Assembly: GCA_040508235.1 (NCBI GenBank)
Contig: JBEVNG010000374.1
Coordinates: 1 to 46,173 of the forward strand
Source: Polyangiales bacterium
GTDB taxonomy: Bacteria; Myxococcota_A; Polyangia; Polyangiales; DASUME01
Reading direction: 5' to 3'
Length of the DNA: 46,173 nucleotides
Shown here: piece by piece, positions 1,246-27,391 of the stretch
How positions within the stretch are numbered: position 1 is the stretch's first letter
How the letters are laid out: every line of letters starts with the position of its first letter
Made by a program: the position numbers and the translations under genes
The notes under the pieces: model-generated
What the model saw: only the letters and a program-made list of their open reading frames with translations
Told to the model about the DNA's origin: nothing
Databases searched by the model: none

Positions 1246-1259
1246 GGGCGGTATAGCTT

Positions 1260-1340
1260 GTCAGGTCTCTGCGCGGCAGCTGAAGGAGCAGGCCGCAAAG
1301 CGCTCGGCTTCACGCCGCGGTAAAGAGACCGCGGCCTGAC
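1260..1340 (+). terminator. Long imperfect hairpin 15 nt after the cytochrome stop (possible terminator or structured element)
   Basis: GTCAGGTCTCT GCGCGG ... CCGCGG taa AGAGACC gcggcc TGAC. Outer 4-bp and inner 7-bp complementary arms with a bulge. No U-tract. Confidence 0.25.
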
Positions 1341-1640
1341 CTGTGCCCGCCTCGATTCGTTCAGAGCACGAGGCGCGCTGGCGCGAGATCGAGCCGCTCG
1401 ACGCGCGCGCCGACCTGCGGCCGATAAGAGGCCGGCGAGGCGAAGGCGCACCTGTCTTGCGAGTGGCTCGTGCTGATCGCGTTCGCCATCGCCGCGCCTC
1501 GGCTTGTGCAGCTCGCACGGCGGATCATCCGGCGCAGTCGGGCGGTCGACCCGTGGATCACTCGCCGAACGTCCTGCAGGTGCTCGCGCTGACTCGCTTA
1601 GTCGCAGATGTTGCGGAACGTGGCGGCGACTGAGCAGGGT

Positions 1641-3341: not shown

Positions 3342-5698
3342 AGACACCCCAAGAACGCCTGCAGCGCGCGCTGCGCCGCGACGTCGAGCCCGAGGTACGC
3401 GTCTCGTGCGGCCGCGGCCTGGCCTCCGTGCTCGGCGATCGCCTCGTGCACCGTGGCGACGCGGCCGTCGTGCAGGAAGTGCGCGCGCGTGGACAGCTCC
3501 CACAGCGGCGGCGTACGCCACTCGTCGCCCGCCGCGCCACCTTGCTCGACGCCGTCTCGCAGGCCAGGGCCCATCGAATGCAGCAGCAGGTCCGAGTAGA
3601 GCGGCACGCGGCTGTTCCGGCCAGGCAAGCTCGGTGTGTGGCAGTCGGCGCAGCCAAGCGCCGCGAACCGCGTCGCGCCGGGTGACGCGAGGCATGCCTC
3701 AGAGGGGGCCGGAGGGTCGAGCGTGTTGAGGAAGCTGACCAGCGCCGTCAGCGGCAGTGCATCGATCTCGGTGTCGGCTCCGTTCGCGCCGCAGCCGCTG
3801 ACGAGGTCCTCCCGGAAGATCGGATTCGTGATGCCGAGCTCGTTTCGATAGGCCTCGCCCATGAAGTCAACCAGCGTGGCCATGTGCGCCTTCCAGCCGA
3901 ACTTGCCGAGCCGCCCATCGGGGAGGTACGCCGCTCGACCGCGTACGGCCGCAGGCTGCGCGTCGCGGTTGACCAGGATGTCGTACTCCCTGATGGCGTC
4001 GATCAGCCCACTGCCTCGCAGGCTCATGGAGCTGCGAGGCGAGAACACGTTGGCGCGCGCCGGAAGCCCGGGTCGGAGCCGGCAGCGCTCGCCGAGCTCC
4101 GCGACGCTGTGCGTGCGCTCGACGGGGCCTCCGTGCATCGCGAGCGGGTCGAAGCCGCCGCGTGGGCCGCGTCGGCCGAACAGGGTCACGAAGGTATTCG
4201 CCTCGATGCCCATCCCGCCGGGAGTCGGGGACAGGTGGCAGTCGATGCACGCACGCTCGTTGAAGAGCGGCCCGAGGCCGTGCGTCACGTCGAGCTGCTT
4301 CGAGAACAAGAACGAGCCCAGCTCGTGCATCGAGCTGGCACCTGCCTTTCGTGCATCGCGTAGCAGCGACGCCGTGGCCGCATGAGCCGCGAACGCCGGC
4401 GTGCTCAGCAGGATGCCGCCGTCCCGGGTGTTCGCCGTCACGTATAGCGTCTGACTGTTCGCGGACACGGCGATGCCACTCACGCGCATGCCCGGCGCCA
4501 CGGACGCGAGGGTCGTCTTCGCGACCATGCGTCCCTCGATAGTCATGCGAACGATCGAGTTATCGCCTCGGTTGAGCACGTAGAAGTCGGAGCCGCCACC
4601 GAGCATCGAGTTGCTGGCGAAGTTCGGGTGCGCGACCTCGCGGACCGCGGGTGCGAGATCGATCGGGAGGTCCAGCGCGGGGTGTGCGAGCACGTGCTTG
4701 CCGGTGACGGTGAACAGCGCGCCGTCGTCACCGATGTCGAGCACCACGATGCGGTTGGCGCGAGCGTCCGGCACGATCACGTTCATCGTAGGCGCCCAGT
4801 TCATCATGATCCCGAGCCGCGCGATCTCCCGCGCGCTCGTGGACTCCGCGCTCGCGATCGAGGGGACCCCGACCGGGCTCACCGTCGCGGCGGGCGACAG
4901 CGGGTCGACCCCCTTGGTGACGTGGACCTGCACCAGGCTGCCGTCCGACAGCACGGCGGCGAACACGGGCCGATTGGTCTCCTCCGGAGACTTGGTGATC
5001 AGCGTGGTACCGAGCGCTGGCGCGCCGAGGCCTTGGTGGACGGTGGGATCTCGGTTCGTCACCGAGCCCGCGAACACCGCGGTCGGACGCCCGTTCGGGT
5101 TGGTGACCGTGACGCTGCCTTCGCGACCGAGCTCCGCCGTGCCGTTGGCGAACCACGGCCGCCCACTCCCGTTATTCAGCGAGATGCTGGTCGGGAAGCT
5201 GACCGATGTCTGCTCCGACGTGGCGGGGGTGTTGACCGGGCCCTGGAAAGCCGGGCTCTGCGCGGCGAACAGCTGCACGCGTCCGCCGGCCGTGCTGGCC
5301 TGACCGTCCGCGCGCGCGAAATCGGGTGGTACCACGAGCGCAGGGCCCGCGACGTCGAGTGACAAGATCGCGCCCTCGCGAACTTGCGGGCGCGCGCGCG
5401 GCGCACCGAAGTTGCTGCTCGACGCGACCAGCACACGCTGGGGGTCGAACACCGCACCGGGCTGACAGTACGCTGCCCACGCCGGGTCGTCGTGCAGCGC
5501 GCCCCCCGGCAGGAAGCGACCCACTTCGCTTACCGCGCCGACGCCGCGCAGGCCCGTGGCCAGCAACCTCGGCGTCACCACGCGCGACCTGAGGTTCCGC
5601 TCGACCCGTGCATCCTGCGCACGTGCTCGCGCACCAGGTTGCAACCAAACGAGCGCGTACAGCAGAGCAACCGCTCCGACGTGACTGCTACGAACCAT
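3338..5698 (-). CDS. Fusion of an N-terminal beta-propeller-like region with a C-terminal di-haem DUF1111-type (thiol-oxidoreductase-like) cytochrome c module
   Basis: ATG at 5698 preceded by GGGAGGAAG. Signal-like N-terminus MVRSSHVGAVALLYALVWLQPGARARA. Two CxxCH motifs (CIDCH, CADCH). C-terminal FLHDGRVATVHEAIAEHGGQA is typical of DUF1111. Confidence 0.8.
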   Translation of the reverse strand: MVRSSHVGAVALLYALVWLQPGARARAQDARVERNLRSRVVTPRLLATGLRGVGAVSEVGRFLPGGALHDDPAWAAYCQPGAVFDPQRVLVASSSNFGAPRARPQVREGAILSLDVAGPALVVPPDFARADGQASTAGGRVQLFAAQSPAFQGPVNTPATSEQTSVSFPTSISLNNGSGRPWFANGTAELGREGSVTVTNPNGRPTAVFAGSVTNRDPTVHQGLGAPALGTTLITKSPEETNRPVFAAVLSDGSLVQVHVTKGVDPLSPAATVSPVGVPSIASAESTSAREIARLGIMMNWAPTMNVIVPDARANRIVVLDIGDDGALFTVTGKHVLAHPALDLPIDLAPAVREVAHPNFASNSMLGGGSDFYVLNRGDNSIVRMTIEGRMVAKTTLASVAPGMRVSGIAVSANSQTLYVTANTRDGGILLSTPAFAAHAATASLLRDARKAGASSMHELGSFLFSKQLDVTHGLGPLFNERACIDCHLSPTPGGMGIEANTFVTLFGRRGPRGGFDPLAMHGGPVERTHSVAELGERCRLRPGLPARANVFSPRSSMSLRGSGLIDAIREYDILVNRDAQPAAVRGRAAYLPDGRLGKFGWKAHMATLVDFMGEAYRNELGITNPIFREDLVSGCGANGADTEIDALPLTALVSFLNTLDPPAPSEACLASPGATRFAALGCADCHTPSLPGRNSRVPLYSDLLLHSMGPGLRDGVEQGGAAGDEWRTPPLWELSTRAHFLHDGRVATVHEAIAEHGGQAAAARDAYLGLDVAAQRALQAFLGCL

Positions 5699-5724
5699 CG
5701 CTTCCTCCCACGCAGATCACACCC

Positions 5725-6675
5725 TCAGATCTGAAACCACACATCCGGTCGCCGCGGCCCTGAACATGCCGCGCGCGGGCTGCGCGCCCGGATCTCACCC
5801 GCTCCGACACGGACAAAGGCCGGCACGTCCTCGAGCACCAGCGCACCTGCGCCGACGATCGCGCCGCGTCCCACCTGCGTCGTGCCCCCGAGCACGGTCG
5901 CGTTCGCGCACAGCGTGACGTGGTCGCCGATCGTCGGATGGCGGCGCGCGGCATCGTGCGGTGCCGCGGGAAGGGAGCGCGCGCCCAGCGTGACCCCTTG
6001 ATAGATCGTCACCTCGTCGCCCACCACGCTGGTCTCACCGATCACGACCCCGGTGCCGTGGTCGATGAAGACGCCGCGCCCAATGCGCGCTCCCGGGTGG
6101 ATGTCCACGCCGGTCTGCGCGTGCGCCCACTCGCTCATCATGCGCGGCAGCAGGGGTACGCCCAGCGCGTAGAGGCGATGGGCGACGCGGTGGATTGACA
6201 ACGCGAGCAGGCCCGGGAAGCAAAGGATGATCTCCGCCGCGCCGCGAGCCGATGGGTCGCGCGACTTGGCGGCGTGCAGATCGTCGAGCAACTGCGAGCG
6301 AAGCAAGGGCAGGCTGGAGATGAGCTCGGTCGCCAGCTCCGCGGCACGCGCGTGATCTGGCGACGAGAGCGCTCGCCAGATCTGTGCGGACAGCCCCGCG
6401 TGCAGTCTGGTCAGCTGCACCTCGACCTGCGCACGGCCCGGCGCCGCGGACGTGGGCCGGAAATAGCCGGGATAGAACAGCACGAGCAAGTCGCGCAGCA
6501 AGCGCCGTACACTCGCGCGCGAGGGTGCGGCGTGGCGCGCGTAGCGCTGCGCCTCGTGCGGCTCGGCGTACGCGGAAGCGAGCGCATGGGCGACGCTCTC
6601 CATAGCGCGCGACGTGGCATCGCGGACCGACGCCGTCGGCATGCGGTCGGTGGCCTCGGGGCACACGGTGGTCAC
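5725..6675 (-). CDS. cysE: Serine O-acetyltransferase
   Basis: Left-handed beta-helix hexapeptide region GARIGRGVFIDHGTGVVIGETSVVGDEVTIYQGVTLG plus an N-terminal helical SATase-like region. The GTG at 6675 overlaps the upstream stop (GTGA). Alternative ATG at 6642. Confidence 0.85.
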   Translation of the reverse strand: MTTVCPEATDRMPTASVRDATSRAMESVAHALASAYAEPHEAQRYARHAAPSRASVRRLLRDLLVLFYPGYFRPTSAAPGRAQVEVQLTRLHAGLSAQIWRALSSPDHARAAELATELISSLPLLRSQLLDDLHAAKSRDPSARGAAEIILCFPGLLALSIHRVAHRLYALGVPLLPRMMSEWAHAQTGVDIHPGARIGRGVFIDHGTGVVIGETSVVGDEVTIYQGVTLGARSLPAAPHDAARRHPTIGDHVTLCANATVLGGTTQVGRGAIVGAGALVLEDVPAFVRVGAGEIRARSPRAACSGPRRPDVWFQI

Positions 6676-7643
6676 ACGCAGCTCGCGACCTCGCCGAAGC
6701 CGAGCGCATCGCCCGACCCAGCGTGAGTGACCATTCCCGCATCGGGCAAGATCGCGACGATCGTGCTGCCTTTCGCCCCCGGGTCGCTGGCGATGCGCGT
6801 GGCTACGGCGATCGCGGCGCCGCCGGACAGACCGGTGACGATGCCCTCCTGCGCGGCCAGCTCACGCATCGTGCGCAGCGCCTCTTCGTCCGTGACCCGC
6901 TCCGCGCGGTCCAACAAGTTGAGGTCGAGCGTGCGAGGGATGAACCCACACCCGAGCCCCGCGATCCGATGCGCACCCGGCGTGAGCGCCAACCCGGCGA
7001 GCGTCTGCCCGATCACGGGGCTCGCGTCGGGCTCGACCGCAACCACCTGCAGCCCGGCGCTCTTGCCGCGGAGGAAGCGCGCCACGCCAGTCACGGTGCC
7101 GCCCGTGCCCACGCCACTTACGAAGTAGTCGAGCTGACCGCCCGTCGCCTCCCAGATCTCCGGGCCAGTGGTGGCCTCGTGCACACGCGGATTGGCGGGG
7201 TTGTCGAACTGCCTGGTGTAGTAGGCGCGCTCGTCTTGGCCGGCGATCACCTCGGCTTCTTCGATCGCGCCGCGCATGCCGAGGTGGAGCGGCGTGTTGA
7301 TGATGCGCGCACCGAGCGAGGCGAGCAGCACGCGACGGTCGAAGTCCATCAGCTGGGGGATGCACAGGGCGCAGCCATAACCGCGTGCCGCGGCGACCGT
7401 CGCGAGCGCAACCCCCATGTTGCCGCAAGTCGCCTCGAGCACGTACATACCGGGCCGGATCACGCCGCGTTGCTCGGCATCGGAGACCAAGCCGGCGGCG
7501 AGCCGACACTTCACGGAGCGTGCGGGGTTGGCGCCTTCCAACTTCACCAAGATGCGCGCGCCCGTCCAGCGCGAGCGCTGCCGCAAACAGACGAGCGGAG
7601 TGTTTCCTACGGCCAAGCTGATGTCTTCCGCTATTCGCGTCAT
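6672..7643 (-). CDS. Cysteine synthase-like PLP enzyme (O-acetylserine sulfhydrylase family) with an atypical substrate loop
   Basis: GNTPLV motif, PLP-lysine motif SVKCR, GVGTGGT glycine loop. ATG at 7643 preceded by GGGGAGGA. The Asn-loop reads TCGNMG instead of the canonical TSGNTG. Confidence 0.85.
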   Translation of the reverse strand: MTRIAEDISLAVGNTPLVCLRQRSRWTGARILVKLEGANPARSVKCRLAAGLVSDAEQRGVIRPGMYVLEATCGNMGVALATVAAARGYGCALCIPQLMDFDRRVLLASLGARIINTPLHLGMRGAIEEAEVIAGQDERAYYTRQFDNPANPRVHEATTGPEIWEATGGQLDYFVSGVGTGGTVTGVARFLRGKSAGLQVVAVEPDASPVIGQTLAGLALTPGAHRIAGLGCGFIPRTLDLNLLDRAERVTDEEALRTMRELAAQEGIVTGLSGGAAIAVATRIASDPGAKGSTIVAILPDAGMVTHAGSGDALGFGEVASCV

Positions 7644-7777
7644 CGGAGTCCTCCCCATTGTTGGTCGCGCGCGCACGTCTCCACCCGCGCGCCGCACTCG
7701 CGTCGCAACCCATTCACCCAGCTCGAATCGTACGGCTCCAAGATCGGCGCCGCAGGTCACGGCACCTCGTGCGCGGC

Positions 7778-8686
7778 TCAGCTACGCGAGGCGCTAGCGA
7801 ACCAGCGCGCGCACTCCGGGCCGAGTTCGCGCTCCGCGCGGGCCTCGTAGCGCTCGACGTCGACCCGACTCAACACCTCGCGCCAGCGTCCGTTGACACC
7901 CTTGTTGACGAACGTGCGCGAGCCGTCGTCCCAGAATGCGCCCTCCATCGGCAGGCTCTTGGTCGCGTTCGCCTTCATGTACTCGAAGGAACAGTGGTGC
8001 ACGATCTCCTGCCAACGCTGCTGGTCGACCGGCACATCGAGGAAGCGCGCGACCTTACGGATCTGCCCTGACAGGTCGCGCTTGAGCTCTTCGTAGTGGA
8101 GCATCAGCACGTTGGGCAGCTGCCGCGCGGACCACCACGAGCGTGCGTGCGCCCAGAACGGCCAGAACGGATAGCCATCGCGCTCGAGCCACTCGATAAA
8201 GTACTCGCGCACCGAGGCCGTAGGCTTCTCGAGCGCGTGACCGACGCGGCCGGGCGTGTCGTTCATCGTCTCGTACCAGAGCGCATTCGCGTTGGCGTGG
8301 TGGTTGTGCATGCTCCACACCACGTCGCGCCCGTCGCGCGCGACGTGGATGTACTTGGCCTTGGGCACGAACACCAACCCGTCGACCGGCAGGTGCGTCT
8401 TGAGGAAGCGCCGATGCGTCTGCGCCTCGACGTGCCGCAGCTTCACCTCGGGCGGGGGAACACGCAGCTCGAGGCACGGTGACATGCGCGCCACCTCCAG
8501 CCCCTCGGCACCGTTGAACAGCAGTTGGGAGACGATCTGCTGCATCCAGGTGGTCCCCGACTTCGCGTAGGTCGCGATGACGATGTCATCGTCGCGGTAC
8601 CTGAAGTCGTTCCAGATGCGAGAGTCCGCATGATGGTTCTGGACTTCACGACGCTTGCGCGGCCAGTCGATGGTGGCGTTCTGCAT
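7778..8686 (-). CDS. PAPS-dependent sulfotransferase (aryl/cytosolic sulfotransferase fold)
   Basis: 5'-PSB loop YAKSGTTWMQQIV and 3'-PB-like ARDGRDVVWSMHNHH. ATG at 8686 preceded by AAGGAGA. Confidence 0.85.
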   Translation of the reverse strand: MQNATIDWPRKRREVQNHHADSRIWNDFRYRDDDIVIATYAKSGTTWMQQIVSQLLFNGAEGLEVARMSPCLELRVPPPEVKLRHVEAQTHRRFLKTHLPVDGLVFVPKAKYIHVARDGRDVVWSMHNHHANANALWYETMNDTPGRVGHALEKPTASVREYFIEWLERDGYPFWPFWAHARSWWSARQLPNVLMLHYEELKRDLSGQIRKVARFLDVPVDQQRWQEIVHHCSFEYMKANATKSLPMEGAFWDDGSRTFVNKGVNGRWREVLSRVDVERYEARAERELGPECARWFASASRS

Positions 8687-8723
8687 TGTTGGTCTCCTTG
8701 GAAGTGCTGGCGCCGCTGCGCGG

Positions 8724-9818
8724 CTAATGCATCGATACGGGCGCGCTCGCGTGACCGGACGGCTCTGGCCAGCGACGATCGACACCGAGGTGCTCCATGA
8801 ACATCACGATTCGCTGCGCGACCGGGACTGCCTGCTCCTCGACCGCGAAGTGCCCTGCGTCGAGGAGGTGCAGTTCGGCCTCGGGCACGTCGCGCAGGTA
8901 AGCCTGGGCCCCCGCGGCGATGAACGCAGGGTCCTCTCGTCCCCACACGATCAACGTGGGCGGGCGCCGCTCGCGCAGGAACGCTTGCCACCGTGGGTAG
9001 GCATCGATGTTGTTCTGGTAGTCCTGGAACAGCGCCACCTGAATGCGTCGGTCCTCATTCGAGGGCAGGCGCGCAATGTCGTGTGTCCAGCTGTCCGGGC
9101 ACATGCGCGTGGCCTTCTCTCCCGGCACGTCGCGCAGGTACTGCTTCTCGCGGATCGCGACGTCGCTCACGAAGCTGGAGAGCGTTTGCAGGTTCTCGGC
9201 CGAGCGATCGTCGCGTGCGCGCTTGAAGAACTCCTGTCGCGGTGGTGTCAGGCCGTCGAGGTACGCATTGGCGTTCTGGATGACCAAGCCGCGCAGGCGC
9301 TCGGGGTGCGCCATCGCCACGCGAAAACCGACCGGCCCCCCGAAGTCTTGCATGTAGAGCACGTACGACTTCAGGCCCAGCGCATCGACGAAGCCCGTGA
9401 TGTGCTCGGCGAGCAGGTCGAACGTGTACCGCACCTCGTCCGGACTCGGGCGTTCGCTGAAGCCCGAGCCGAGGTAGTCTGGCGCAAGCACGTGGTAGCG
9501 CCCAGACAAGAGCGGAATCAGCTCGCGATAGGTATGCGACGACGACGGATATCCGTGCAGCAACAGCAGGGTGGGCCGCGTGGGATCTCCCGCCTCGCGA
9601 TAGAAGATGCGCCGCCCCGTCACCTCGACGGTTCGGTAGTACGTCTTCGCCGGCCAGGTCGGAGCGGGGATCCCGTCGGCGTCGCCATTCGCATGCCGCT
9701 CGGCTGCGAGTGCGTGCGCGTCGACCGCTTGCCGGACCTGGTGCGCGCACCCCGCGAGCGCGAGGATCGTGCCTAGTGCAGCGAACGAGAGCGTGCGGGA
9801 GAAGGTGTGTTGCGACAT
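8724..9818 (-). CDS. Exported alpha/beta hydrolase lipoprotein, Asp-nucleophile type (epoxide hydrolase / haloalkane dehalogenase-like)
   Basis: ATG at 9818 preceded by AGGAG. Lipoprotein signal MSQHTFSRTLSFAALGTILALAGC. LLLLHGYPSSSHTY oxyanion region and nucleophile elbow MQDFGGPVG. Confidence 0.8.
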   Translation of the reverse strand: MSQHTFSRTLSFAALGTILALAGCAHQVRQAVDAHALAAERHANGDADGIPAPTWPAKTYYRTVEVTGRRIFYREAGDPTRPTLLLLHGYPSSSHTYRELIPLLSGRYHVLAPDYLGSGFSERPSPDEVRYTFDLLAEHITGFVDALGLKSYVLYMQDFGGPVGFRVAMAHPERLRGLVIQNANAYLDGLTPPRQEFFKRARDDRSAENLQTLSSFVSDVAIREKQYLRDVPGEKATRMCPDSWTHDIARLPSNEDRRIQVALFQDYQNNIDAYPRWQAFLRERRPPTLIVWGREDPAFIAAGAQAYLRDVPEAELHLLDAGHFAVEEQAVPVAQRIVMFMEHLGVDRRWPEPSGHASAPVSMH

Positions 9819-9877
9819 GCGAGCTCCTGTTGATCGGATCGTTGCGTGAGCCATGCAGACCACGCTGCTATCCCTCG

Positions 9878-10615
9878 TCACGGAAAGAGCGCTGCGAATC
9901 CCGTTGCACCGAGCAACGCCAGCGAGATGACGCGAAAGTGGAGGTGTCCTCCAGCGCGGAAGAGCACGCTCCCGAGATAGCTGCCCACGAACATACACGG
10001 CGCGATGATCAGCACCCACGTTAGCGACGCCGATGTCAGCAGCCCCGCCGGAGCGAGCACGAGCGTTACCTGCGCAACCTGAAGCAACGCGAAGTACGTC
10101 ACGAAGCTCGCACGACTCGTCTCGGCCGAGACGTTGGTCGACAAGAAGTACAACACCACGCGTGGGCCACCGAGGCTGACCGCGCCGTTGAGCACGCCAC
10201 TCACAAAACCAGCGACCACGCGCCAGGGCGGAGCCAGGGGCGTCGACGCGGGCCTGATCAGGGCGAGCCCGAGCGCGGTCCCGATCACCACGAGCGCCGC
10301 GACACGGCGTAGTGCGTCCGACGACAGGTGGACCAACAGCCAGGTTCCCAGCGGCAGCGCCAACACTGCCCCCAGCGCCATTCCCAGCACCGCGCGCAGG
10401 TCGGCTTCACGCCGCAGCCCGATCGCCATCGGCACGCTAGAGACGAACGTCGTCACCACCACCGCGACCACCGCTTCGCGCGCAGGCACGACCAGCGAGA
10501 GCATGGGCACCATGACGAGCGCGGCGCCGAACCCGCTGATGCCGCGCGCGAAGCCACCAACGAGCCCGGTGGCGACGGCAGCAGTGATCTGCGTGAGGAA
10601 CGAGGGAGTGAGCAT
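9878..10615 (-). CDS. TauE/SafE (TSUP) family membrane permease
   Basis: 245-aa polytopic hydrophobic protein. Family-like N-terminus GLVGGFARGISGFGAALVMVPMLSLVV. ATG at 10615. Confidence 0.8.
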   Translation of the reverse strand: MLTPSFLTQITAAVATGLVGGFARGISGFGAALVMVPMLSLVVPAREAVVAVVVTTFVSSVPMAIGLRREADLRAVLGMALGAVLALPLGTWLLVHLSSDALRRVAALVVIGTALGLALIRPASTPLAPPWRVVAGFVSGVLNGAVSLGGPRVVLYFLSTNVSAETSRASFVTYFALLQVAQVTLVLAPAGLLTSASLTWVLIIAPCMFVGSYLGSVLFRAGGHLHFRVISLALLGATGFAALFP

Positions 10616-10653
10616 GATCTTCCCGCTTGGACGGCCCCGGCGCCGGTCTTGGT

Positions 10654-11538
10654 TCAGCGCCCCAGCGCAGTGATCACGGCTGACAGGTCGTCGCGCCCTC
10701 GCCCACGACGCAGCGCGACGTCGTACTGGCGCTCGATCGCCTCCGTGACCGGCACGTGCTGGTCTGCACGTCGTGCGGCATCAAGGACCAGCCGAACGTC
10801 CTTGTGCGCCAGGTCCAGGGGAAAGCAGGGCGTGAACTCCTCGCTGAGCATCATGCGCGCCTTGCCCTCTGCATAAGGCGCCATGAACACGCCTCCATCG
10901 ACCAGGTGCAAGAACGAGCGCGGCTCGACGCCGAGCGCGCGCGCCAGCGTGATCGTCTCGGAGAGCAGCGCGACCATGCCGGTGCTCCACTGGTTGGCGA
11001 CGAGCTTGAGCTTGCTCGCCGCGCCGGCGCGGCCCACCCACACCGTGCGCTCTCCGACGGCCGCGAACACGACCTTGCAGCGCTCGGCCAAAGGCGGCTC
11101 GCCAGCCGCTACGATGGTAAGCGTGCCCGCCTCCGCGGGCTGGCGCGTACCGAGCACGGGCGCGTCGACGAAGTCGATGCCGGCAGCCGCCGCAAGCGCG
11201 GACAGCTCGCGTATCGACTCGGCACCCACCGTGCTCATCTGGATCCAAAGCGCCCCTGGTTCCATCGCCACGAGCGCTTCGGCCATCACCTGCTTCACCA
11301 CGCCGCCGTCCGAGAGCATCGTGATCACGACGTCCGCGCCGCGCACGGCGTCGGCCGGGCAGCTTGCGCACCGCGCGCCCTGAGCTTGCAACGCCCGCAT
11401 CGACTCGGCCGAGCGGTTCCACACCGACACCGGCAGCCCAGCGGCGAGTAGGTTGCGGGCCATCGCACCGCCCATGATGCCCGTGCCGAGCAGCGCGATC
11501 TGGTCGCCTGCCAGCGTGCTCCCGGGAGCGCGCGTCAT
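10654..11538 (-). CDS. NAD(P)-dependent beta-hydroxyacid dehydrogenase (HIBADH / 6PGDH-NAD-binding family)
   Basis: Rossmann motif IALLGTGIMGGAMARNL and catalytic-Lys region GAASKLKLVANQ. ATG at 11538 forms an ATGA overlap with the upstream stop. The upstream 120 aa of the listed ORF are Arg-rich and overlap the VOC gene. Confidence 0.85.
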   Translation of the reverse strand: MTRAPGSTLAGDQIALLGTGIMGGAMARNLLAAGLPVSVWNRSAESMRALQAQGARCASCPADAVRGADVVITMLSDGGVVKQVMAEALVAMEPGALWIQMSTVGAESIRELSALAAAAGIDFVDAPVLGTRQPAEAGTLTIVAAGEPPLAERCKVVFAAVGERTVWVGRAGAASKLKLVANQWSTGMVALLSETITLARALGVEPRSFLHLVDGGVFMAPYAEGKARMMLSEEFTPCFPLDLAHKDVRLVLDAARRADQHVPVTEAIERQYDVALRRGRGRDDLSAVITALGR

Positions 11539-11981
11539 TCGCTCGTCACCGAAGGCTGAAAGCCACCCAGAAACTGCTCGGCGTGGTCCTTGAAGGCCTT
11601 GAACTCGAGCGCGTTCCCGAACGGATCGAGCAGGAACATGGTGAAGTGCTCGCCTTGTTTGCCCACCAGCCTCGCATGAGGCTCCTCCACGAAGCCGATC
11701 GCGTTCTGCTTGAGCCGGTCGGCCAGCTGTTGCCACGACGTGTAGTCGAGGTTGAGGCCGAAGTGCGGCACCGGCACCGCGTGCCCGTCGAAGCAAGAGT
11801 CGGGTGGCGGTGGAGGCGGTGGCGCGATGTGCGCGACGATCTGGTGACCGAAGAAGTCGAAGTCCACGTAGACGTCGGAGCAGCGCCCCTCCGGGCACCC
11901 CAGCACGCCGCCGTAAAAGCGACGCGCCTGATCGAGGTCGGTGACGGGAAACGCGAGATGGAACTGTGAGATCTTGGACAT
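11535..11981 (-). CDS. VOC (glyoxalase / bleomycin-resistance / dioxygenase) family protein
   Basis: MSKISQFHLAFPVTDLDQARRFYGGVLGC is a typical VOC N-terminal beta-alpha-beta module. ATG at 11981. Confidence 0.75.
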   Translation of the reverse strand: MSKISQFHLAFPVTDLDQARRFYGGVLGCPEGRCSDVYVDFDFFGHQIVAHIAPPPPPPPDSCFDGHAVPVPHFGLNLDYTSWQQLADRLKQNAIGFVEEPHARLVGKQGEHFTMFLLDPFGNALEFKAFKDHAEQFLGGFQPSVTSE

Positions 11982-12009
11982 GTTGGTCTTCCGCGCGTAG
12001 GCAGGCAGC

Positions 12010-12771
12010 TCAGGCACGCGCCTGCGTGGGCTCGGCGCGCTCGGTCGTCGGCGCGCTGCGCAGGTCGGCAAAATGCTCGGCGTAGATGTTCTCCCAGAAC
12101 TTGTCGAAGATCGCCTTGGCGTCGCGGTACCCTTTGATCAGCTCGTCGAGCTGCTCGGGGCTGCTGGTGACGAGCGTCTCGACCGATGCCTTGAGCTTCT
12201 CGCGATGCGCGATGTCCACGTCACCCGTGTGGATGTCCCAGAACGTCCAGGACACACGGTCCGAGAGCGCGCGGATCGCAGGGTTGTCGACGAAGTGCGC
12301 GTGCATCGCCGCCAGGTACACCTGGCAGAGGCACTCGCCGCCCATGCCTCGCAGGCCAACCGCGTAGGGGGCGGTGCCCGCGACGACGCGGGTCTGCAGG
12401 TCCAGCAGCAAGCGCATGTTCTCCTGGTTGGCGTCGAGCGCGAGCTCCTCGGCGGGGATGCCGATGCTGAGCAAGAAGTTGTCGTACAGTCTCTCGTGCG
12501 CCGCCTCGTTGTCGCCGTTGCCGAGCTCGTCGTTCAGGAAGTCGGCCAGCAGGCTGCGCAGCTCGCCGAACGGCAGCTTTGCCACCAGCAACGCAAGGTC
12601 GGTGATGTAGAAGATGGTGAAGTAGCGATACTGGACAAAGATCTTGCGCAGCACGGGCAGCGGCACGGTCGCGAGCCGCTTCAGTCGCTCGTCGGCGAGG
12701 TAAGCCGTTTGCGTGCGCGCAGCATCGGCCAACAACCAGAACTCTCGCAGCGAGTCGTCGTGATTCGTCAT
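12010..12771 (-). CDS. Haem-oxygenase-like di-iron (iron-containing redox enzyme family) protein
   Basis: ATG at 12771 preceded by a strong SD GGAGGTGAAGGA. All-helical protein with E-x-x-H type ligand motifs (DELGNGDNEAAHERLYDNF; DIHTGDVDIAHREK). Confidence 0.7.
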   Translation of the reverse strand: MTNHDDSLREFWLLADAARTQTAYLADERLKRLATVPLPVLRKIFVQYRYFTIFYITDLALLVAKLPFGELRSLLADFLNDELGNGDNEAAHERLYDNFLLSIGIPAEELALDANQENMRLLLDLQTRVVAGTAPYAVGLRGMGGECLCQVYLAAMHAHFVDNPAIRALSDRVSWTFWDIHTGDVDIAHREKLKASVETLVTSSPEQLDELIKGYRDAKAIFDKFWENIYAEHFADLRSAPTTERAEPTQARA

Positions 12772-12837
12772 TCCTTCACCTCCGAAGTTGCGCACATCGT
12801 CGTGAGCTCGTGCAGTTGCTTTATGCGCGAACGTTCG

Positions 12838-12883
12838 GCGCAGCCACTACGAGATCTGATAGGTGCGCGCACCGGCGCCTGAG
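12838..12883. promoter_or_regulatory. Two perfect palindromes in the divergent HDO/luxI intergenic region (candidate operators)
   Basis: CGAACGTTCG at 12838-12847 and GGTGCGCGCACC at 12872-12883, inside the 145-bp spacer 12772-12916. No canonical CTG-N10-CAG lux box seen. Confidence 0.25.
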
Positions 12884-12916
12884 ACGCACTGTGTCGCCCG
12901 AAAGGATGGCAAGACG

Positions 12917-13576
12917 ATGGCAGTCTTATCGATCGGTCGACGCAGTGATTTGGGACCCGAGCTCTACGACGCTGTCTGTAGATATCGTCACGAGGTCTTT
13001 GTACGAAGACTTGGCTGGAGCCTCGCACCCGGGCGCCCTGACCACGAAGAGGATGAGTTCGACACCGAAGACACTGTGTACGTGGTCGCCCGCGCACTCG
13101 ATGGTCGCGTTTGCGGGCTCGCGCGCTTGCTGCCGACGACGCGACCGTACTTGCTCGGCAAGGTGTTCCCTCAACTGGTGCGAGGGCCGGCGCCCAGCGA
13201 GCCCACGCAGTGGGAACTGTCGCGCTTCGCGGCCGACGCCGGGTCGGGGCTCGCACGCAGGCTCTTCGCGCGTGCGGTGGACGAAGCGAGCGCGCGCGGA
13301 GCCACGCACTTGGTCGGGGTGTTGTCGACGAGGGTCGAGCGCAGCTGCCATGGCTTCGGTGCGCAGTTGGTGAGGCTCGGCGACGAGGTCAACCACGATG
13401 GCGAGACTATCGTCGCGTGCGCGGTCAACACGCGAGCCGCATTCGTCAGCTCCGGTGCCGCGTGCTATCCGATCATGTTTGGCGTGCCGAACCAGCGCGG
13501 TGTGCCTCGGGACTGGGTCCCGGCGCGTTCGACGCAGTCCGCGCCGACGCGTGCAGCGAGCCTCCGCGTCTGCTGA
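12917..13576 (+). CDS. luxI: Acyl-homoserine-lactone synthase (LuxI family)
   Basis: ATG at 12917 preceded by AAAGGATGG. Family-conserved blocks YRHEVFVRRLGW, EEDEFD, GLARLLPTTRPYLLGKVF and WELSRFAAD. Confidence 0.9.
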   Translation: MAVLSIGRRSDLGPELYDAVCRYRHEVFVRRLGWSLAPGRPDHEEDEFDTEDTVYVVARALDGRVCGLARLLPTTRPYLLGKVFPQLVRGPAPSEPTQWELSRFAADAGSGLARRLFARAVDEASARGATHLVGVLSTRVERSCHGFGAQLVRLGDEVNHDGETIVACAVNTRAAFVSSGAACYPIMFGVPNQRGVPRDWVPARSTQSAPTRAASLRVC

Positions 13577-13580
13577 CGCG

Positions 13581-14321
13581 TCAGGAGGACGCGAGCAGAC
13601 CGAGGTGCACGGCTCTCGCCGCGGCGTGCACCTTGTTCTGCGCGTCCAGCTTCCTGATCGTGTTCTTGATGTGGAAGTTCACGGTATTCTCGGAGATCCC
13701 GATGATCTGCCCGATCTCCCACGACGTCTTGCCCTGGGCGGTCCAGGTCAAGACCTCACGCTCGCGCGCGGAGAGGCGCACCTGCTGCTTCGCGGTGCGC
13801 TCGTTGGCCGTCGCCACCTGGATGCACCCGCGCATGTTGTCCGCGATCCAGCGAAGCCGTGGGCGAAGCCACGTCAGCTCGGCCTCGCTCAGGGCGGTCG
13901 TCTCGCGCGCAACCGAGAGCAACCCGAAGTAACGGGCGTTGCCCCAGGAGGGCGTGGCGATGCCCACGCGCAGCCCCACACTGCGGGCATCGGCCCAGAG
14001 CTCGGTCGCCTCCGCGAACACGCGGTCCGACCACCTCACGGGACTGTCTCTCTGCGCACCCAACGCCACGGTGGGGTCGATGCGAATATAGTCACGCGCG
14101 ATGTAGTGCTTCATCCAGCCGCGCGGATACGAATCGAAGATGGCGTCCTGCTCCTGCCCAAACGCGCTCAGGTGGCGGAGCCCGAAGGAGCAGAAGCTGA
14201 ATCCAAGCTGCTCGGTGAAGGTCCGACCGCGCGCGAACACCTCACCGGGTGTGCTCGCCGCACGCAGCGACTGGAACACGTCCGGCCACCAGGTATCCGA
14301 CGTCGCGCTGGAATCGGCCAT
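13581..14321 (-). CDS. luxR: LuxR-family transcription regulator (autoinducer-binding domain plus C-terminal HTH)
   Basis: Autoinducer-domain signature YPRGWMKHYIARDYIRIDP, VRWSD and GLRVGIATP. HTH region LSAREREVLTWTAQGKTSWEIGQIIGISENTVNFHIKNTIRKL. ATG at 14321 gives 246 aa. Tail-to-tail with luxI, 4-nt gap. Confidence 0.9.
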   Translation of the reverse strand: MADSSATSDTWWPDVFQSLRAASTPGEVFARGRTFTEQLGFSFCSFGLRHLSAFGQEQDAIFDSYPRGWMKHYIARDYIRIDPTVALGAQRDSPVRWSDRVFAEATELWADARSVGLRVGIATPSWGNARYFGLLSVARETTALSEAELTWLRPRLRWIADNMRGCIQVATANERTAKQQVRLSAREREVLTWTAQGKTSWEIGQIIGISENTVNFHIKNTIRKLDAQNKVHAAARAVHLGLLASS

Positions 14322-14327
14322 GACAGT

Positions 14328-14354
14328 ACCCAAACCGTGATGGCTAGTTTGGGT
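14328..14354 (-). promoter_or_regulatory. Stem-loop in the luxR 5' leader, immediately upstream of the start codon
   Basis: Perfect 8-bp arms ACCCAAAC (14328-14335) and GTTTGGGT (14347-14354) with an 11-nt loop. The 3' arm on the mRNA ends 6 nt before the ATG, where an SD would sit. Confidence 0.3.
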
Positions 14355-14512
14355 GGCGCCGTCAAGGCAGAACCAGCTTCGATTCGGTATGAGTGCGAGC
14401 TCCGCATGCGGGGCCGCAAGCGGCATTGCACCTCCGGGGCCGAGCCGAGATGTTGACCTTACAACGGGATGTTTCCAAGGAGCTACGCGGGACTCATCGC
14501 CAACTGCTAGCT

Positions 14513-14608
14513 GATGGGGGAAGAGCGGTCCTGTCTGCTGCGGGCCTTGTGTTTAGAACAGAGCAAGCGGCAGAGCGCGACATGATCGCCTTCCAACAGA
14601 CGCTGTAG
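14513..14608 (+). pseudogene. Relic 3' end of a paralogue of the cytochrome c gene at 1..1245
   Basis: nt 14574-14608 match nt 1211-1245 at 30 of 35 positions, and both end in an in-frame stop. Translation ...GLVFRTEQAAERDMIAFQQTL* compares with ...GVEMFTPEQKRDIIAFLQTL*. There is no haem motif or intact upstream ORF, and local GC is lower. Confidence 0.5.
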
Positions 14609-14645
14609 TCCAATACGCACGCGCCCCCTCCGTTGTGAACCGGCC

Positions 14646-14665
14646 CGCGATTGGCGACAATCGCG
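14646..14665. promoter_or_regulatory. 20-bp inverted repeat upstream of the lipoprotein gene
   Basis: CGCGATTG-gcga-CAATCGCG, 16 nt upstream of the ATG at 14681. Confidence 0.2.
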
Positions 14666-14680
14666 AGGTCAGGGGGATGG

Positions 14681-15175
14681 ATGCGCAGAGCGATCTGGCT
14701 CGCCGCGCTCGTCGTCGCGTGTGGCGATGACGGCGGCGATGCCACGGCCAACAAGAAGCTGAGTGAGCTGGACAGCGAAGAGCTGAGCGAGGTGTGCGCG
14801 AAGGTCGACGCTCGCTTCTCGCGCTTCGAGATCGCGTTCGTGTCCGCGAGCTGCACGCAGACCGCGCTGATGACGCCGTCGACGTGCGAGACCACGCGCA
14901 CGCAGTGCATCGCGGGCACCAACCCGGTCGGCTCGCTGGCGGGCAAGGTCGAGCTCGACTGCGAGGGCACGCCGCTGTCGCTCAACGCCGCGTGCGCGGA
15001 GATCAGCGTCGAGGAGCTCGACACCTGCTCCGATCAGATCATCGACGGCATCGAGGCGCTGTCGGCCAAGATCACCTGCACCGCGGACCTGGCGATGTTG
15101 AAGCCGCCCGAGACGCCGGCCAGCTGCACCAAGCTCGGCACGCGCTGCCCGACGCTCTCTGCGTTCAAGCTCTGA
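14681..15175 (+). CDS. Cys-rich lipoprotein (hypothetical)
   Basis: ATG at 14681 preceded by AGGGGGA. Lipobox MRRAIWLAALVVAC. Ten Cys in the mature part. Acidic, non-Arg-biased composition. Confidence 0.7.
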   Translation: MRRAIWLAALVVACGDDGGDATANKKLSELDSEELSEVCAKVDARFSRFEIAFVSASCTQTALMTPSTCETTRTQCIAGTNPVGSLAGKVELDCEGTPLSLNAACAEISVEELDTCSDQIIDGIEALSAKITCTADLAMLKPPETPASCTKLGTRCPTLSAFKL

Positions 15176-15178
15176 CGG

Positions 15179-16123
15179 CTACTTGCGCAGCGCGTTGTCG
15201 CACTCGCGCTGGCTGGTGAACAGGCGGGCGATGCCGTCCTCCCGCACCTGCGTGAAGCGATGGCGCGCGAAGATCGCGGCCAGGCGCGGCACCTGCGCGG
15301 CACGCGGATCGGGCAAGCACGGACCACAGCTGCCGGGCAGCGCGTCGTGCTCCGCGTTGCGCGGAACGCTGCCGGCGTGCGTGTTGCCGTAGTCGATCGA
15401 GGTCTGCAGGTAGTACGCGGTGCACAGCTCGCACTGCGCGGGCTCGCAGCCCTCGCGCGCGACGCTGGTCCACTGGCAAGCGGGCGCCAGCTGCACCGGC
15501 TGCGACGCGTACACCAGGCCCTGCGCATCGGCGCGCGTCAGCATGCGGTCGAACGGGATGCGCTCCTGGCCGCCGTTCTCGGACGGTGCGCCGCCCTCGC
15601 AGCGGTTGTCCCAGATGCGCACGCCCGTGCTCAGCGAGAGGCGCTGGCTGCAGGCCGATTGCTCGGTGACGTGCCCGCGCGTGTCGAGGTCCGCGAACAG
15701 CCGTCCCTCGTGCGCCTGCAGTGTGAGCGCGATGCAGAAGCCGGCGCGCGGCTTGGCCTCCAGCCAGTCGTTGCGCACGTACAGCGTCACCGGCTGATCC
15801 TCCGCGTACCACGGCGCGTCGATCAGCTTGGGGTTCTCGTCGACCTGGTAGCTGGCCAGCTCCGGGATCTGGGCGCGCGCCCAGCGCAAGGCCAGCTTGC
15901 TGTCGAACGGCTGGCAGCTGCCCTGCTCGCACAGCAGCGTCTGGCCCGCGCTCGACGGCATGCGCGCACAGTCGCGATCGGACGCGCACTGCGGCGCCTT
16001 CCTTGGCGGGGCCGCGGCCGGTTGCGCGACGGGCGTGTTCGCGTCGACGGCGATCGGCTCGGGTTTGCGCGAACAACTCGGCGCACAGAGGAGAAGGAGA
16101 AAGAGAAGAGCTCGCGCCACCAT
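15179..16123 (-). CDS. Cys-rich secreted protein or lipoprotein (hypothetical)
   Basis: ATG at 16123, 7 nt after the kinase stop. Signal MVARALLFLLLLCAPSC. Composition is far more protein-like than the overlapping frames 15165..16202(-) and 15260..17155(+). Confidence 0.7.
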   Translation of the reverse strand: MVARALLFLLLLCAPSCSRKPEPIAVDANTPVAQPAAAPPRKAPQCASDRDCARMPSSAGQTLLCEQGSCQPFDSKLALRWARAQIPELASYQVDENPKLIDAPWYAEDQPVTLYVRNDWLEAKPRAGFCIALTLQAHEGRLFADLDTRGHVTEQSACSQRLSLSTGVRIWDNRCEGGAPSENGGQERIPFDRMLTRADAQGLVYASQPVQLAPACQWTSVAREGCEPAQCELCTAYYLQTSIDYGNTHAGSVPRNAEHDALPGSCGPCLPDPRAAQVPRLAAIFARHRFTQVREDGIARLFTSQRECDNALRK

Positions 16124-16129
16124 CGAACT

Positions 16130-17188
16130 TTAGCGGCGCAGGAACCAATAGCCCGCGAGCGCGATCACCATCGTGCTGACGGCGGCGATGCTCATCAGCC
16201 ACAGTGGACGATGGGCGCCACGAACGGTCACCACGCTGGTGGGGATGGCCGCCTCGCCGCCAAAGCTGGGGATGTCGCTCTGCAGTGCCATACGCAGCGC
16301 GCCGATGGTGCGAAACCGGTGGTCCGGATCGGGCGAGAGCGCCACGCGCAGGACTTCATCCACGTAGGCCGGCACGTCGCCACGGCGATGGTGGATCGAA
16401 GCGAACGTGAGCGCGCTTCCGGTGCGTCCGGCGCGGGTCAGCGCACGCTGCGTGAACGGCGGCTCCGACATCAGCAGGTAGTACAGGATGCAGCCCACCG
16501 AGAACACGTCCGCGCGCGCGTCGACACGCGGGCTGCCCACGGACTGCTCGGGCGCCATGTAGTGCAGCGAGCCCACGGCCATGCCCTCGCGCGTGATCGG
16601 CGCGCCGGTGCGGCCGGTGCGCACGTAGGACTTGGACAGGCCGAAGTCGACGACCTTGCAGTGCAGCCAGCCGTCGCGGCGTCCCACCACGATGTTGCGC
16701 GGCTTGAGGTCGCGATGCACCAGGCCGGCGTCGTGCACGGCATCGAGCGCCGCGCACACCTGCACGATGATCGCGAGCGCGTCGCTCCAGGGCAGGCGCC
16801 CGCGCTGCAGGATCTCCTGCGTGAGGTCGTGGCCCGCCACATGCTCCATGACCAGGAACGGCGCGCCGTTGGCGTGGTGCCCAAAGTCGTAGAGGCGCGC
16901 GACGTGCTCGCTGCGCACGCGGTGCAGCGCGCTGGCCTCGTTGCGGAAGCGACGCTGTGCCTCGCGCATGCGACCCAGGTGCGCGTGCATCAGCTTGAGC
17001 GCCACGCGCACGTCGCGCTTCTCATCCTGCGCCGCGTAGACCGAGCCCATGCCGCCGCGTCCGAGCAGCTCGATCAGGCGATAGCGGTCGCCGACCACCG
17101 TGCCGATCTCCAGGCTCTCCCGCTCGACGCGCACGCCCGTCGTCTCGACGGGTGAGCTGGAGCTCGAAGACACGGAGGAGGCGGTCAC
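16130..17188 (-). CDS. Ser/Thr protein kinase (Hanks type) with a C-terminal transmembrane anchor
   Basis: GRGGMGSVY glycine loop, VALK, HRDLKPRNIVV, DFGLSK and APE (MAPEQ). C-terminal hydrophobic segment LWLMSIAAVSTMVIALAGYWFL. GTG start at 17188. Confidence 0.9.
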   Translation of the reverse strand: MTASSVSSSSSSPVETTGVRVERESLEIGTVVGDRYRLIELLGRGGMGSVYAAQDEKRDVRVALKLMHAHLGRMREAQRRFRNEASALHRVRSEHVARLYDFGHHANGAPFLVMEHVAGHDLTQEILQRGRLPWSDALAIIVQVCAALDAVHDAGLVHRDLKPRNIVVGRRDGWLHCKVVDFGLSKSYVRTGRTGAPITREGMAVGSLHYMAPEQSVGSPRVDARADVFSVGCILYYLLMSEPPFTQRALTRAGRTGSALTFASIHHRRGDVPAYVDEVLRVALSPDPDHRFRTIGALRMALQSDIPSFGGEAAIPTSVVTVRGAHRPLWLMSIAAVSTMVIALAGYWFLRR

Positions 17189-19221: not shown

Positions 19222-19234
19222 CCCACTCTCCACC

Positions 19235-19258
19235 GTTGACGTTGACGTTGACGTTGAC
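19235..19258. repeat. Perfect tandem hexamer (GTTGAC)x4, read as (GTCAAC)x4 on the coding strand
   Basis: gttgac gttgac gttgac gttgac at 19235-19258, followed by gtg. Lies in the 67-nt spacer between the fusion-gene stop (19289) and the OSC ATG (19221), abutting the OSC SD. Confidence 0.9.
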
Positions 19259-19288
19259 GTGGCCGGCGACGGCGACGATCCCGCGGTA

Positions 19289-22687: not shown

Positions 22688-22897
22688 CCCTTCGTGCCTC
22701 CCTGCGGCGGTGTAACCAGCACTCGTGATGCGGGCAAGCTTTCCGCGAGGGTCGAACAGCGTGGGAACGTCAATAAAATCCTAGTGAAAGAGCCTTCACT
22801 ATCAGCGAGGGAATCTCACGGGTGGCGCACGTGCACAAACGCATGCGTTACACGCAAAGTGCACTGACACGCGCGCAAACGCTGACCGATCAGGTCG

Positions 22898-24364: not shown

Positions 24365-24371
24365 CGCGCGC

Positions 24372-24932
24372 TCACTCCACGCAGATCTGCACGGTGGCCT
24401 TGCCGACCGTGGCGCCGTTTTGCTGGAGGTCGAACAGCACCTGCCAGGGGCCGCGCATGATGAAGTCGATACGCTCCAGCTTGTACGTGCCGGGCTCCGT
24501 GCCGGGCGACACCACCGGGGGCGTCTTGCCGCCATGGCGATGCACCGGCATGTACGACGCCGGGTTCAGGAACGTGAGCCCCGAGACGGGCTGCCCCGCG
24601 GCGTCGCTTACCTGCACGGTCCAGTCGTTGCGCGTCTTCTGGCGCGGCGGCGCGGGCGTGATCGCCTGCACCTTCACCGTGAGCTCGCCCGCCTTCACGG
24701 ACATGCCGGGCGTGAACGACGGATAAGCGGCGTCGCAGGGCACCTCTTCTTCGAGGTACGGGTCGCCGCCGTCGGCCGTCGCCGCGTCGTGATCGTGCTC
24801 GTGACCACTCGCATCGTGGTCGTGCTCGTGATCATCGCCTTCCCCTGCGGGCGCGTCGTCGCCACAGGCGTACGCGAAGCCGAGCGCGGCGACACAGGTC
24901 GAGAGCAAGAGCCGTTTGGCAAAGCTAGTCAT
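24372..24932 (-). CDS. YtkA/FixH-like Ig-fold lipoprotein with a His/Asp-rich linker
   Basis: ATG at 24932 preceded by GAGGATG. Lipobox ALGFAYAC. Low-complexity EGDDHEHDHDASGHEHDHD. C-terminal beta-rich domain (GTYKLERIDFIMRGPWQVLF). The family call is from memory only. Confidence 0.6.
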   Translation of the reverse strand: MTSFAKRLLLSTCVAALGFAYACGDDAPAGEGDDHEHDHDASGHEHDHDAATADGGDPYLEEEVPCDAAYPSFTPGMSVKAGELTVKVQAITPAPPRQKTRNDWTVQVSDAAGQPVSGLTFLNPASYMPVHRHGGKTPPVVSPGTEPGTYKLERIDFIMRGPWQVLFDLQQNGATVGKATVQICVE

Positions 24933-24939
24933 GACATCC

Positions 24940-26538: not shown

Positions 26539-26677
26539 GCGTGCTCCCAAGGCCATCATTGCTACCGCAAGACCATGGGATGACGCAGGGCTTTCCGCAC
26601 GCAATGCGGAGATTTTTGTGTGCTGCGGGCTCTTTACCCCACAACGCCATGGTCGCTTTCGCGCCTGACGGTTTCGG

Positions 26678-27379: not shown

Positions 27380-27391
27380 GTCGTCTCCAGA

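Follow-up and report, generated by a model that had tools for sequence, protein, structure and literature searches.

A putative convergent luxI/luxR quorum-sensing pair on a metagenomic contig of Polyangiales affiliation

The window, that is, the whole stretch of 46,173 nucleotides of contig JBEVNG010000374.1 that was analysed, carries a luxI-type acyl-homoserine-lactone (AHL) synthase gene and a luxR-type AHL receptor gene facing each other tail-to-tail. With a probability of about 0.72, the two genes represent a functional AHL quorum-sensing module of a Polyangiales bacterium, apparently intact and canonical, and located on a chromosome fragment. This reading was built on the family membership and conserved residues of both proteins, the arrangement of their genes, the taxonomy of the contig and the clade structure of the synthase, all of which were observed directly. 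The pair comprises the following features:

12917..13576, plus strand: luxI-type AHL synthase gene, 219 aa, matching PF00765 and TofI; GenBank MET0286214.1
12968..13432, plus strand: Autoind_synth domain of LuxI, residues 18-172, with R24, F28, W34, D46, D49, R70, E100, S102 and R103
13433..13573, plus strand: C-terminal tail of LuxI, without homology to other LuxI proteins and about 25 aa longer than that of TofI
13581..14321, minus strand: luxR-type AHL receptor/transcription factor gene, 246 aa, with Autoind_bind and GerE domains
13839..14243, minus strand: autoinducer-binding domain of LuxR, residues 27-161, with W69, Y73, D82, P83, W97 and G133
13617..13775, minus strand: GerE/LuxR-type helix-turn-helix, residues 183-235, with E187, L191 and G197

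In the six-frame list of open reading frames (ORFs), the luxI ORF extends over 12863..13576 on the plus strand, with its first ATG at 12917 and an AAGGA motif 10 nt upstream of that ATG. The synthase motifs quoted in the initial annotation (YRHEVFVRRLGW, EEDEFD, RLLPTTRPY and WELSRF) were all found in this ORF, and the profile searches proposed there gave scores far above the cut-offs for both proteins; for LuxI, Autoind_synth (PF00765) reached 57.7 bits (cut-off 24) over profile positions 11-175 of 183. The nearest NCBIfam model was that of the TraI-type AHL synthases, and the protein has an exact match in MET0286214.1, titled 'MAG: acyl-homoserine-lactone synthase [Polyangiales bacterium]' (MAG, metagenome-assembled genome). 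Nine residues were checked and all nine are present (R24, F28, W34, D46, D49, R70, E100, S102 and R103). The serine, S103 in LuxI numbering and S102 here, is a further conserved position. The published conserved sites, in LuxI numbering, are R25, F29, W35, D46, D49, R70, E101 and R104 (PMC12781772).

Among solved structures, TofI from Burkholderia glumae (3p2f) was the closest to the window LuxI, with an E-value of 1.6e-35 and about 50% identity over 155 residues. LasI (1ro5) gave an E-value of 1.2e-16, and the coenzyme A (CoA)-using synthases BjaI and RpaI were matched far more weakly than TofI (E about 1e-15). Because LuxI is far closer to TofI than to these CoA-using enzymes, acyl-acyl carrier protein (acyl-ACP) is the likeliest donor, and the protein is most likely an acyl-ACP-dependent synthase of a medium-chain fatty acyl-homoserine lactone. 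The homologues of LuxI span only about 75-80% of the query, and the TofI alignment stops at residue 175. A frameshift in the tail was considered and ruled out, given that homology reaches profile position 175 of 183 and that the tails of relatives are also unrelated. The tail is instead read as a drifting C-terminus, because two related metagenomic loci, L002 and L004, likewise carry LuxI proteins with unrelated tails.

The luxR ORF occupies 13581..14426 on the minus strand in the same list, where a second ATG lies internally at 14321; the motifs previously quoted for it (YPRGWMKHYIARDYIRIDP, VRWSD and the helix-turn-helix) were recovered. Autoind_bind (PF03472) scored 109.1 bits (cut-off 23) over residues 27-161 and GerE (PF00196) 72.6 bits (cut-off 23.5) over residues 183-235, the nearest NCBIfam models being those of SdiA and TraR. 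The AHL-receptor signature, which we take to be the nine residues W57, Y61, D70, P71, W85, G113, E178, L182 and G188 in TraR numbering, is complete (9/9) as W69, Y73, D82, P83, W97, G133, E187, L191 and G197. Eight of the nine are identical to RhlR by alignment, G133 being placed by motif alone, and none of the nine shows a substitution typical of the LuxR solos that respond to plant signals. End-to-end alignments were obtained with the wild-type chains of RhlR (E 1e-40), QscR (1e-34), SdiA (1e-33) and LasR (1e-29). Two starts are candidates for luxR: 14321, giving 246 aa, and 14426, giving 281 aa and used by NCBI and Logan. The former agrees with the N-termini of the homologues and with the GC content at third codon positions (GC3), which is 0.63 upstream vs 0.89 in the body of the gene; the latter has a GGAGG Shine-Dalgarno motif.

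As the initial annotation had stated, the genes are tail-to-tail with 4 nt between their stop codons, the luxI TGA lying at 13574-13576 and the luxR stop, read as TCA on the forward strand (reverse complement TGA), at 13581-13583. The two genes adjoin, and LuxI and LuxR have one set of relatives in common, so that they qualify as a putative cognate, clustered pair.

The organism-named homologues all belong to Beta- and Gammaproteobacteria, with identities of 40-49% to LuxI and 32-41% to LuxR, and the closest of them come from Burkholderia, Noviherbaspirillum, Cupriavidus, Ralstonia and Paraburkholderia. The closest relatives overall are metagenome sequences (45-54% for LuxI, 49-55% for LuxR). 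For LuxI, the best relative was found on L002 (54%); for LuxR, the best were those on L004 (55%) and L003 (54%), with 49% for that on L002. Each of these three loci carries both luxI and luxR, the co-phylogeny of the two genes being without resolution at the fine scale, and the JGI name for the closest LuxR proteins is 'SolR'.

Neighbour-joining trees of LuxI were built from 122 sequences, and bootstrapping was performed on 59 taxa with 150 replicates. The window LuxI was placed in a clade of 19 sequences (145 of 150 replicates) without any organism-named proteobacterial LuxI; the inner branching of the clade is unresolved. In cluster look-ups of 20 proteins, organism names came up for more distant LuxI clusters only (Ralstonia, Denitromonas and an Arthrobacter-labelled record) and for none of the clade members or their neighbours on the contigs; one clade contig, L046, carries HisRS. 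Judged by these trees, which the initial annotation had suggested as a check for horizontal origin, the clade is deep, well supported and known from metagenomes only, and none of the named proteobacterial systems has the window pair as a fresh copy. A related LuxR is the usual neighbour of its members. At least six of them adjoin a LuxR gene, namely L002, L003, L004, L045 and contigs of P0005 and P0095. The order is a tandem luxR then luxI in L002, L003, L004, L045 and the contig of P0005, and a convergent pair, like that of the window, in the contig of P0095.

L003 is part of a 40-kb JGI contig on which ruvA and ruvB are also found. Its RuvB shares 92% identity with a protein from a 'Polyangiales bacterium' MAG; among its seven organism-named relatives, six bear a Polyangiales, Myxococcota or Deltaproteobacteria label and the seventh the label 'Pseudomonadota bacterium'. 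At least one second, independent Polyangiales contig therefore holds a pair of the same clade, about 45-54% identical to that of the window. This speaks against one recent import from Burkholderiales and suggests a lineage of pairs that circulates or is resident in uncultured Polyangiales. The earlier view that such a pair is unusual for myxobacteria agrees with the literature, but the host is an uncultured MAG and not a characterised predatory myxobacterium, and the pair is not a one-off, as its metagenomic clade includes at least one other contig from Polyangiales.

Members of the clade often adjoin specialised-metabolite genes, as observed in L004, L044, L045 and the contig of P0005. In L004, JGI-named pentalenolactone D/F synthase-like genes and a GAPDH gene lie at 1042-4837, and the P0005 contig carries a type II polyketide synthase set (two ketosynthases, an ACP and a cyclase). 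L044 has a non-ribosomal peptide synthetase (NRPS)-like AMP-binding/thioesterase gene with an FkbO-like gene (991-8907), and L045 has DHQS-like and FAD-monooxygenase genes (10828-13850).

The contig is labelled in GenBank as Polyangiales, an order of Myxococcota. The label of the MAG bin was not taken as evidence at the contig level, and the taxonomy was judged from the genes of the contig itself. The composition is uniform across the window, with 63-75% GC per kb and about 69% overall, in line with the value of about 70% given in the initial annotation. The sterol genes and the Hanks kinase mentioned there were also recognised, as an oxidosqualene cyclase (OSC; TIGR03463, 713 bits), a squalene-epoxidase/squalene-synthase (SE-SQS) fusion and a Ser/Thr kinase with a Pkinase match; multihaem cytochromes, type IV pilus proteins and a transglutaminase-like protein are encoded as well. 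In a search that covered one genome per GTDB species, the best OSC match was that of the Polyangiales MAG SMAG_U1563 (87% identity), and the next matches (60-66%) were Polyangiales or Myxococcales MAGs and one labelled 'Pseudomonadota bacterium'. The SMAG_U1563 contig is 82-84% identical at the nucleotide level to window positions 17257-26694 and 29481-32050 (about 12 kb), with the gene order kept, and the sterol, cytochrome and ABC genes adjoining the pair are 62-90% identical in amino acids and syntenic with a Polyangiales MAG. A Myxococcota-type contig, as originally proposed, is well borne out by these genes. A proteobacterial contig, which had been named as the finding that would overturn the proposal, does not fit, because the contig's own genes and synteny point to Polyangiales and the OSC relatives are mostly Polyangiales or Myxococcales MAGs.

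Of the taxonomic clues given earlier, the MYXO-CTERM tail at 24943-25044 (minus strand) was the one that held in part. The tail, ...DDGCAIG...WTSLGMLLMVLGRNLRRRKK, is the C-terminus of a BNR-repeat protein and has the expected look of the motif, with a Cys-containing motif, a hydrophobic stretch and RRRKK. TIGR03901, its sole family match, scored 18.0 bits vs a cut-off of 20 (E 0.0028), so that MYXO-CTERM was not detected at default thresholds and stayed below threshold even when the tail was scanned alone. With regard to the assembly, an independent Logan assembly (run SRR28982162) yielded a 3,810-bp contig 100% identical to 11586-15395, with the same gene order.

Comparison with a related contig, L008 (JBEGTL010000374.1), delimited a variable region around the pair:

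1247..16157, unstranded: variable 14.9-kb segment containing the luxI/luxR pair, 13 genes

The flanks of this segment (a cytochrome c gene on one side; the Ser/Thr kinase, OSC and SE-SQS genes on the other) are 75-81% identical at the nucleotide level between L008 and the window, and in L008 the segment is replaced by 0.8 kb (4792-5607) holding an unrelated 262-aa ORF. No integrase, transposase, edge tRNA or boundary repeats were found for 1247-16157, and its GC content is 68.3%, vs 69.6% in the rest of the window. No luxI or luxR was found within 10 kb of the OSC gene in 37 related genome loci, the closest of which, L007, ends 84 nt past the OSC gene and therefore carries no weight in this comparison.

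The surroundings of the pair contain three further features:

13550..13610, unstranded: GC-rich hairpin across both stop codons, detected by folding energy against shuffled sequences
12772..12916, unstranded: 145-bp intergenic region between the divergent luxI and HDO genes, candidate promoter/operator
3338..12771, minus strand: co-directional gene string divergent from luxI, candidate regulon by position

The hairpin has a minimum free energy of -31.4 kcal/mol on the plus strand and -31.8 kcal/mol on the minus strand (z -2.65 and -2.80; 2 of 200 shuffles equal), and both stop codons lie inside a perfect 12-bp palindrome, CTGACGCGTCAG (13573-13584). It could be a bidirectional terminator or a stabiliser, although it has no T-run, and a scan for the intrinsic-terminator consensus gave nothing at the hairpin or useful near the pair. 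The intergenic region contains two short palindromes, CGAACGTTCG (12828-12837) and GGTGCGCGCACC (12862-12873), the second of which is a 12-mer that is not enriched (3 matches at up to 1 mismatch vs 1.39 expected). A scan for the sigma-70 consensus found none in 12772..12916 and nothing useful near the pair. In the luxR-luxI spacers of the relatives L002 (2544-2561) and L004 (5920-5937) a common 18-bp palindrome was observed, CCTACCAAGATTGGGAGG and CCTACCAACTTTGGTAGC, respectively, which is a good candidate lux box for the LuxI clade.

The string on the other side of the intergenic region encodes, in order, a haem-oxygenase-like di-iron enzyme (HDO/Haem_oxygenas_2), a VOC/glyoxalase protein, a HIBADH-like reductase, an alpha/beta hydrolase, a sulfotransferase, a CysK-like pyridoxal-phosphate enzyme, a CysE-like acetyltransferase and a di-haem oxidoreductase. 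The HDO has a weak BesC-like match, and the alpha/beta hydrolase is haloalkane-dehalogenase-like. From its gene content, the string looks like a small-molecule pathway, amino-acid-derived and possibly sulfated, and it is a candidate regulon of LuxR from the divergent arrangement alone.

Other observations concern genes at a distance from the pair. The SE-SQS fusion is a single ORF of 1,163 aa (19289-22780, minus strand), in which the squalene epoxidase part (residues about 37-428) and the squalene synthase part (about 833-1125) are separated by a middle part (about 596-772) that matches squalene/oxidosqualene-cyclase profiles. It is kept in L007-L011 at 65-90% amino acid identity, and in loci of more distant Polyangiaceae and Acidobacteriota the epoxidase and the synthase are each matched by a segment of their own. 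TonB-dependent receptor and HmuY-like genes (26678-29344, minus strand) are missing from the equivalent position (2554-2668) of L007, a closely related Polyangiales MAG contig, which represents a further indel between close relatives. The sole tRNA gene of the window, tRNA-Leu(CAG) at 32553-32637 on the minus strand, is flanked by a glycosyltransferase-like gene and a type IV pilin-like cluster, at a long distance from the luxI/luxR segment.

From the two proteins and their setting we infer AHL production, the kind of ligand, autoinduction and a regulon. The LuxI-type enzyme would condense S-adenosylmethionine with an acyl carrier thioester, most likely acyl-ACP, into an N-acyl-homoserine lactone, presumably of the medium-chain fatty acyl type. 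LuxR would bind the lactone through its conserved Trp/Tyr/Asp pocket, dimerise, and bind DNA through the GerE helix-turn-helix, so regulating promoters, plausibly with the intergenic region between luxI and HDO among them. The expression of luxI and luxR may be coupled through their common hairpin by convergent transcription.

A number of observations weigh against a functional module, and three alternative explanations were considered. No 16-22-bp lux-box-like dyad was found in 12772-12916 and none of note in 14322-14650, and the 18-bp CCTACCAA-N2-TTGGTAGG palindrome of the relatives had 0 matches in the window at up to 3 mismatches. The last 47 or so residues of LuxI match nothing, and the GC content by codon position in this part (0.66/0.68/0.79) is atypical of coding DNA. 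The missing lux box upstream of luxI would fit an intact pair that lacks a self-contained autoinduction loop, with either a silent or conditional synthase, like AgpI, or a LuxR acting as an apo-repressor or de-repressor of the EsaR type, the AHL perhaps being made for cross-talk with prey or partners. EsaR-type receptors of convergent pairs act without ligand, which counts for this explanation. So does the convergent arrangement with a shared hairpin, which favours transcriptional interference or antisense effects, as discussed for the R2 topology (PMC3386692), and so do the described myxobacterial synthases AgpI and VitI, which are silent in their native hosts and yield no AHL in axenic culture (PMC7862692). 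The residues of the ligand pocket are nonetheless all canonical, the best structural relatives (RhlR, QscR, SdiA and LasR) are ligand-activated, and most clade relatives have the tandem luxR-to-luxI order typical of positive feedback. An intact pair without such a loop is regarded as unlikely, though it is the main one of the three alternatives.

The other two alternatives concern the origin of the pair. Because the 14.9-kb segment is absent from the related MAG contig L008, the pair is accessory rather than core, and the segment is not an obvious mobile element. Its absence there, the beta- and gammaproteobacterial origin of every organism-named relative (40-49% for LuxI, 32-41% for LuxR), the 'SolR' names of the closest LuxR proteins and the GC3 of luxI, which at 0.77 is the lowest among the window genes vs about 0.9 in the host, would be compatible with a recent horizontal acquisition from Burkholderiales-type Betaproteobacteria, in which the pair is a passenger in a variable island without an integrated host role. 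The compositional support for such a transfer is weak, as the GC3 of luxI alone stands out and luxR, with 0.88-0.89, matches the codon usage of the host. Moreover, identity stays below 50% to any named proteobacterial protein, the LuxI clade excludes the named Proteobacteria in 145 of 150 replicates, no integrase, transposase, tRNA or boundary repeat marks the segment, and the 45-54% identity of the pair on the second Polyangiales contig implies that such pairs have long been resident in the group or have been exchanged repeatedly within it, all of which makes a recent transfer quite improbable. A taxonomic anchor is available for only two clade members, the window and L003.

A mis-binned or chimeric contig, with the luxI/luxR segment coming from a co-sampled proteobacterium, would be in keeping with the source, a MAG. 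Only one metagenome assembly links the pair to the sterol genes, as the Logan contig spans only 11586-15395 and does not bridge to them, and L008, a close relative of the window flanks, is labelled 'Pseudomonadota bacterium', which looks like legacy or mis-assigned taxonomy. Nevertheless, GC content is uniform at 68-70%, the genes to either side of the pair have a GC3 of 0.84-0.93, L008 has the two flanks of the 14.9-kb segment co-linear on one contig, a further Polyangiales contig is among the closest relatives of the pair, and no named proteobacterial protein exceeds 49% identity, so that we give a chimera very little credence. A functional AHL quorum-sensing module belonging to the Polyangiales host is the most likely reading.

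Myxobacteria are usually treated as listeners to prey AHLs, and AHL systems are already known outside Proteobacteria. Since the mechanism is the textbook one, AHL signalling is known beyond Proteobacteria and the genes were already auto-annotated in GenBank, the gain lies in taxonomic reach and ecology and not in mechanism. The locus is a concrete candidate for a complete myxobacterial pair, the gene content of its contig being that of Polyangiales, and it points to a metagenomic family of related pairs, some of them beside polyketide, terpenoid or NRPS-like genes. It raises the question of whether some Myxococcota both produce and perceive an AHL of their own, and whether this AHL controls specialised metabolism. 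More tentatively, and with odds that we place somewhat below even, uncultured Polyangiales may keep a long-resident LuxI/LuxR lineage of their own, frequently beside specialised-metabolite genes. If this were true, self-produced AHL quorum sensing, beyond eavesdropping on prey, would be native to some of the Myxococcota, where it may gate secondary metabolism.

Among known systems, those of myxobacteria are the first to be compared. AgpI from Archangium gephyra is a solo synthase with no LuxR anywhere in the genome, and VitI from Vitiosangium sp. has a LuxR in the genome that is not clustered with vitI (PMC7862692). Both are LuxI-family synthases in Myxococcota with a probable horizontal entry (PMC7862692, PMC13293253), and the Archangium synthases have been traced to the LuxI of the alphaproteobacterial Microvirga, to which they are more than 70% identical (PMC13293253). 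These synthases have no adjacent receptor, whereas the window LuxI has an adjoining LuxR. It is probably a lineage separate from AgpI and VitI, set apart by the match list and not by alignment, because its named relatives are from Burkholderiales and no Archangium, Vitiosangium or Microvirga protein was found among its best 120 matches. No complete LuxR/LuxI system has been documented in any myxobacterium (ISME J, June 2026, PMC13293253), and our literature searches brought up no description of such a pair from MAGs of Myxococcota. On the basis of the former statement the host is new, while the mechanism is canonical, and the complete pair is without an earlier description in the phylum.

The Burkholderiales systems TofI/TofR (B. 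glumae), CepI/CepR and SolI/SolR resemble the window pair in domain architecture and in the conserved residues checked. The window pair differs from them by its identity of less than 50%, its separate LuxI clade, its convergent genes and the different phylum of its host, and a cep/tof-type box was not found for it. RhlR, QscR and LasR from Pseudomonas aeruginosa and SdiA from Escherichia coli align with the window LuxR over the full length and share with it both domains and the signature residues of the pocket and helix-turn-helix; identity is about 35-40%, and a PqsE-like partner is not implied. The convergent arrangement itself corresponds to the luxR/luxI topology called 'R2' by Gelencser et al. 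(2012) and 'type B' by Goryachev, which has been described for 53 proteobacterial genomes, where the overlaps measure 2-79 bp (PMC3386692). Most of the closest relatives of the window pair are, in contrast to this topology, tandem luxR-to-luxI. The window pair shares with the R2 pairs the tail-to-tail genes with touching or overlapping 3' ends, and is distinguished from them by a 4-nt gap instead of an overlap, by stop codons placed in a palindromic hairpin, and by a host outside Pseudomonadota.

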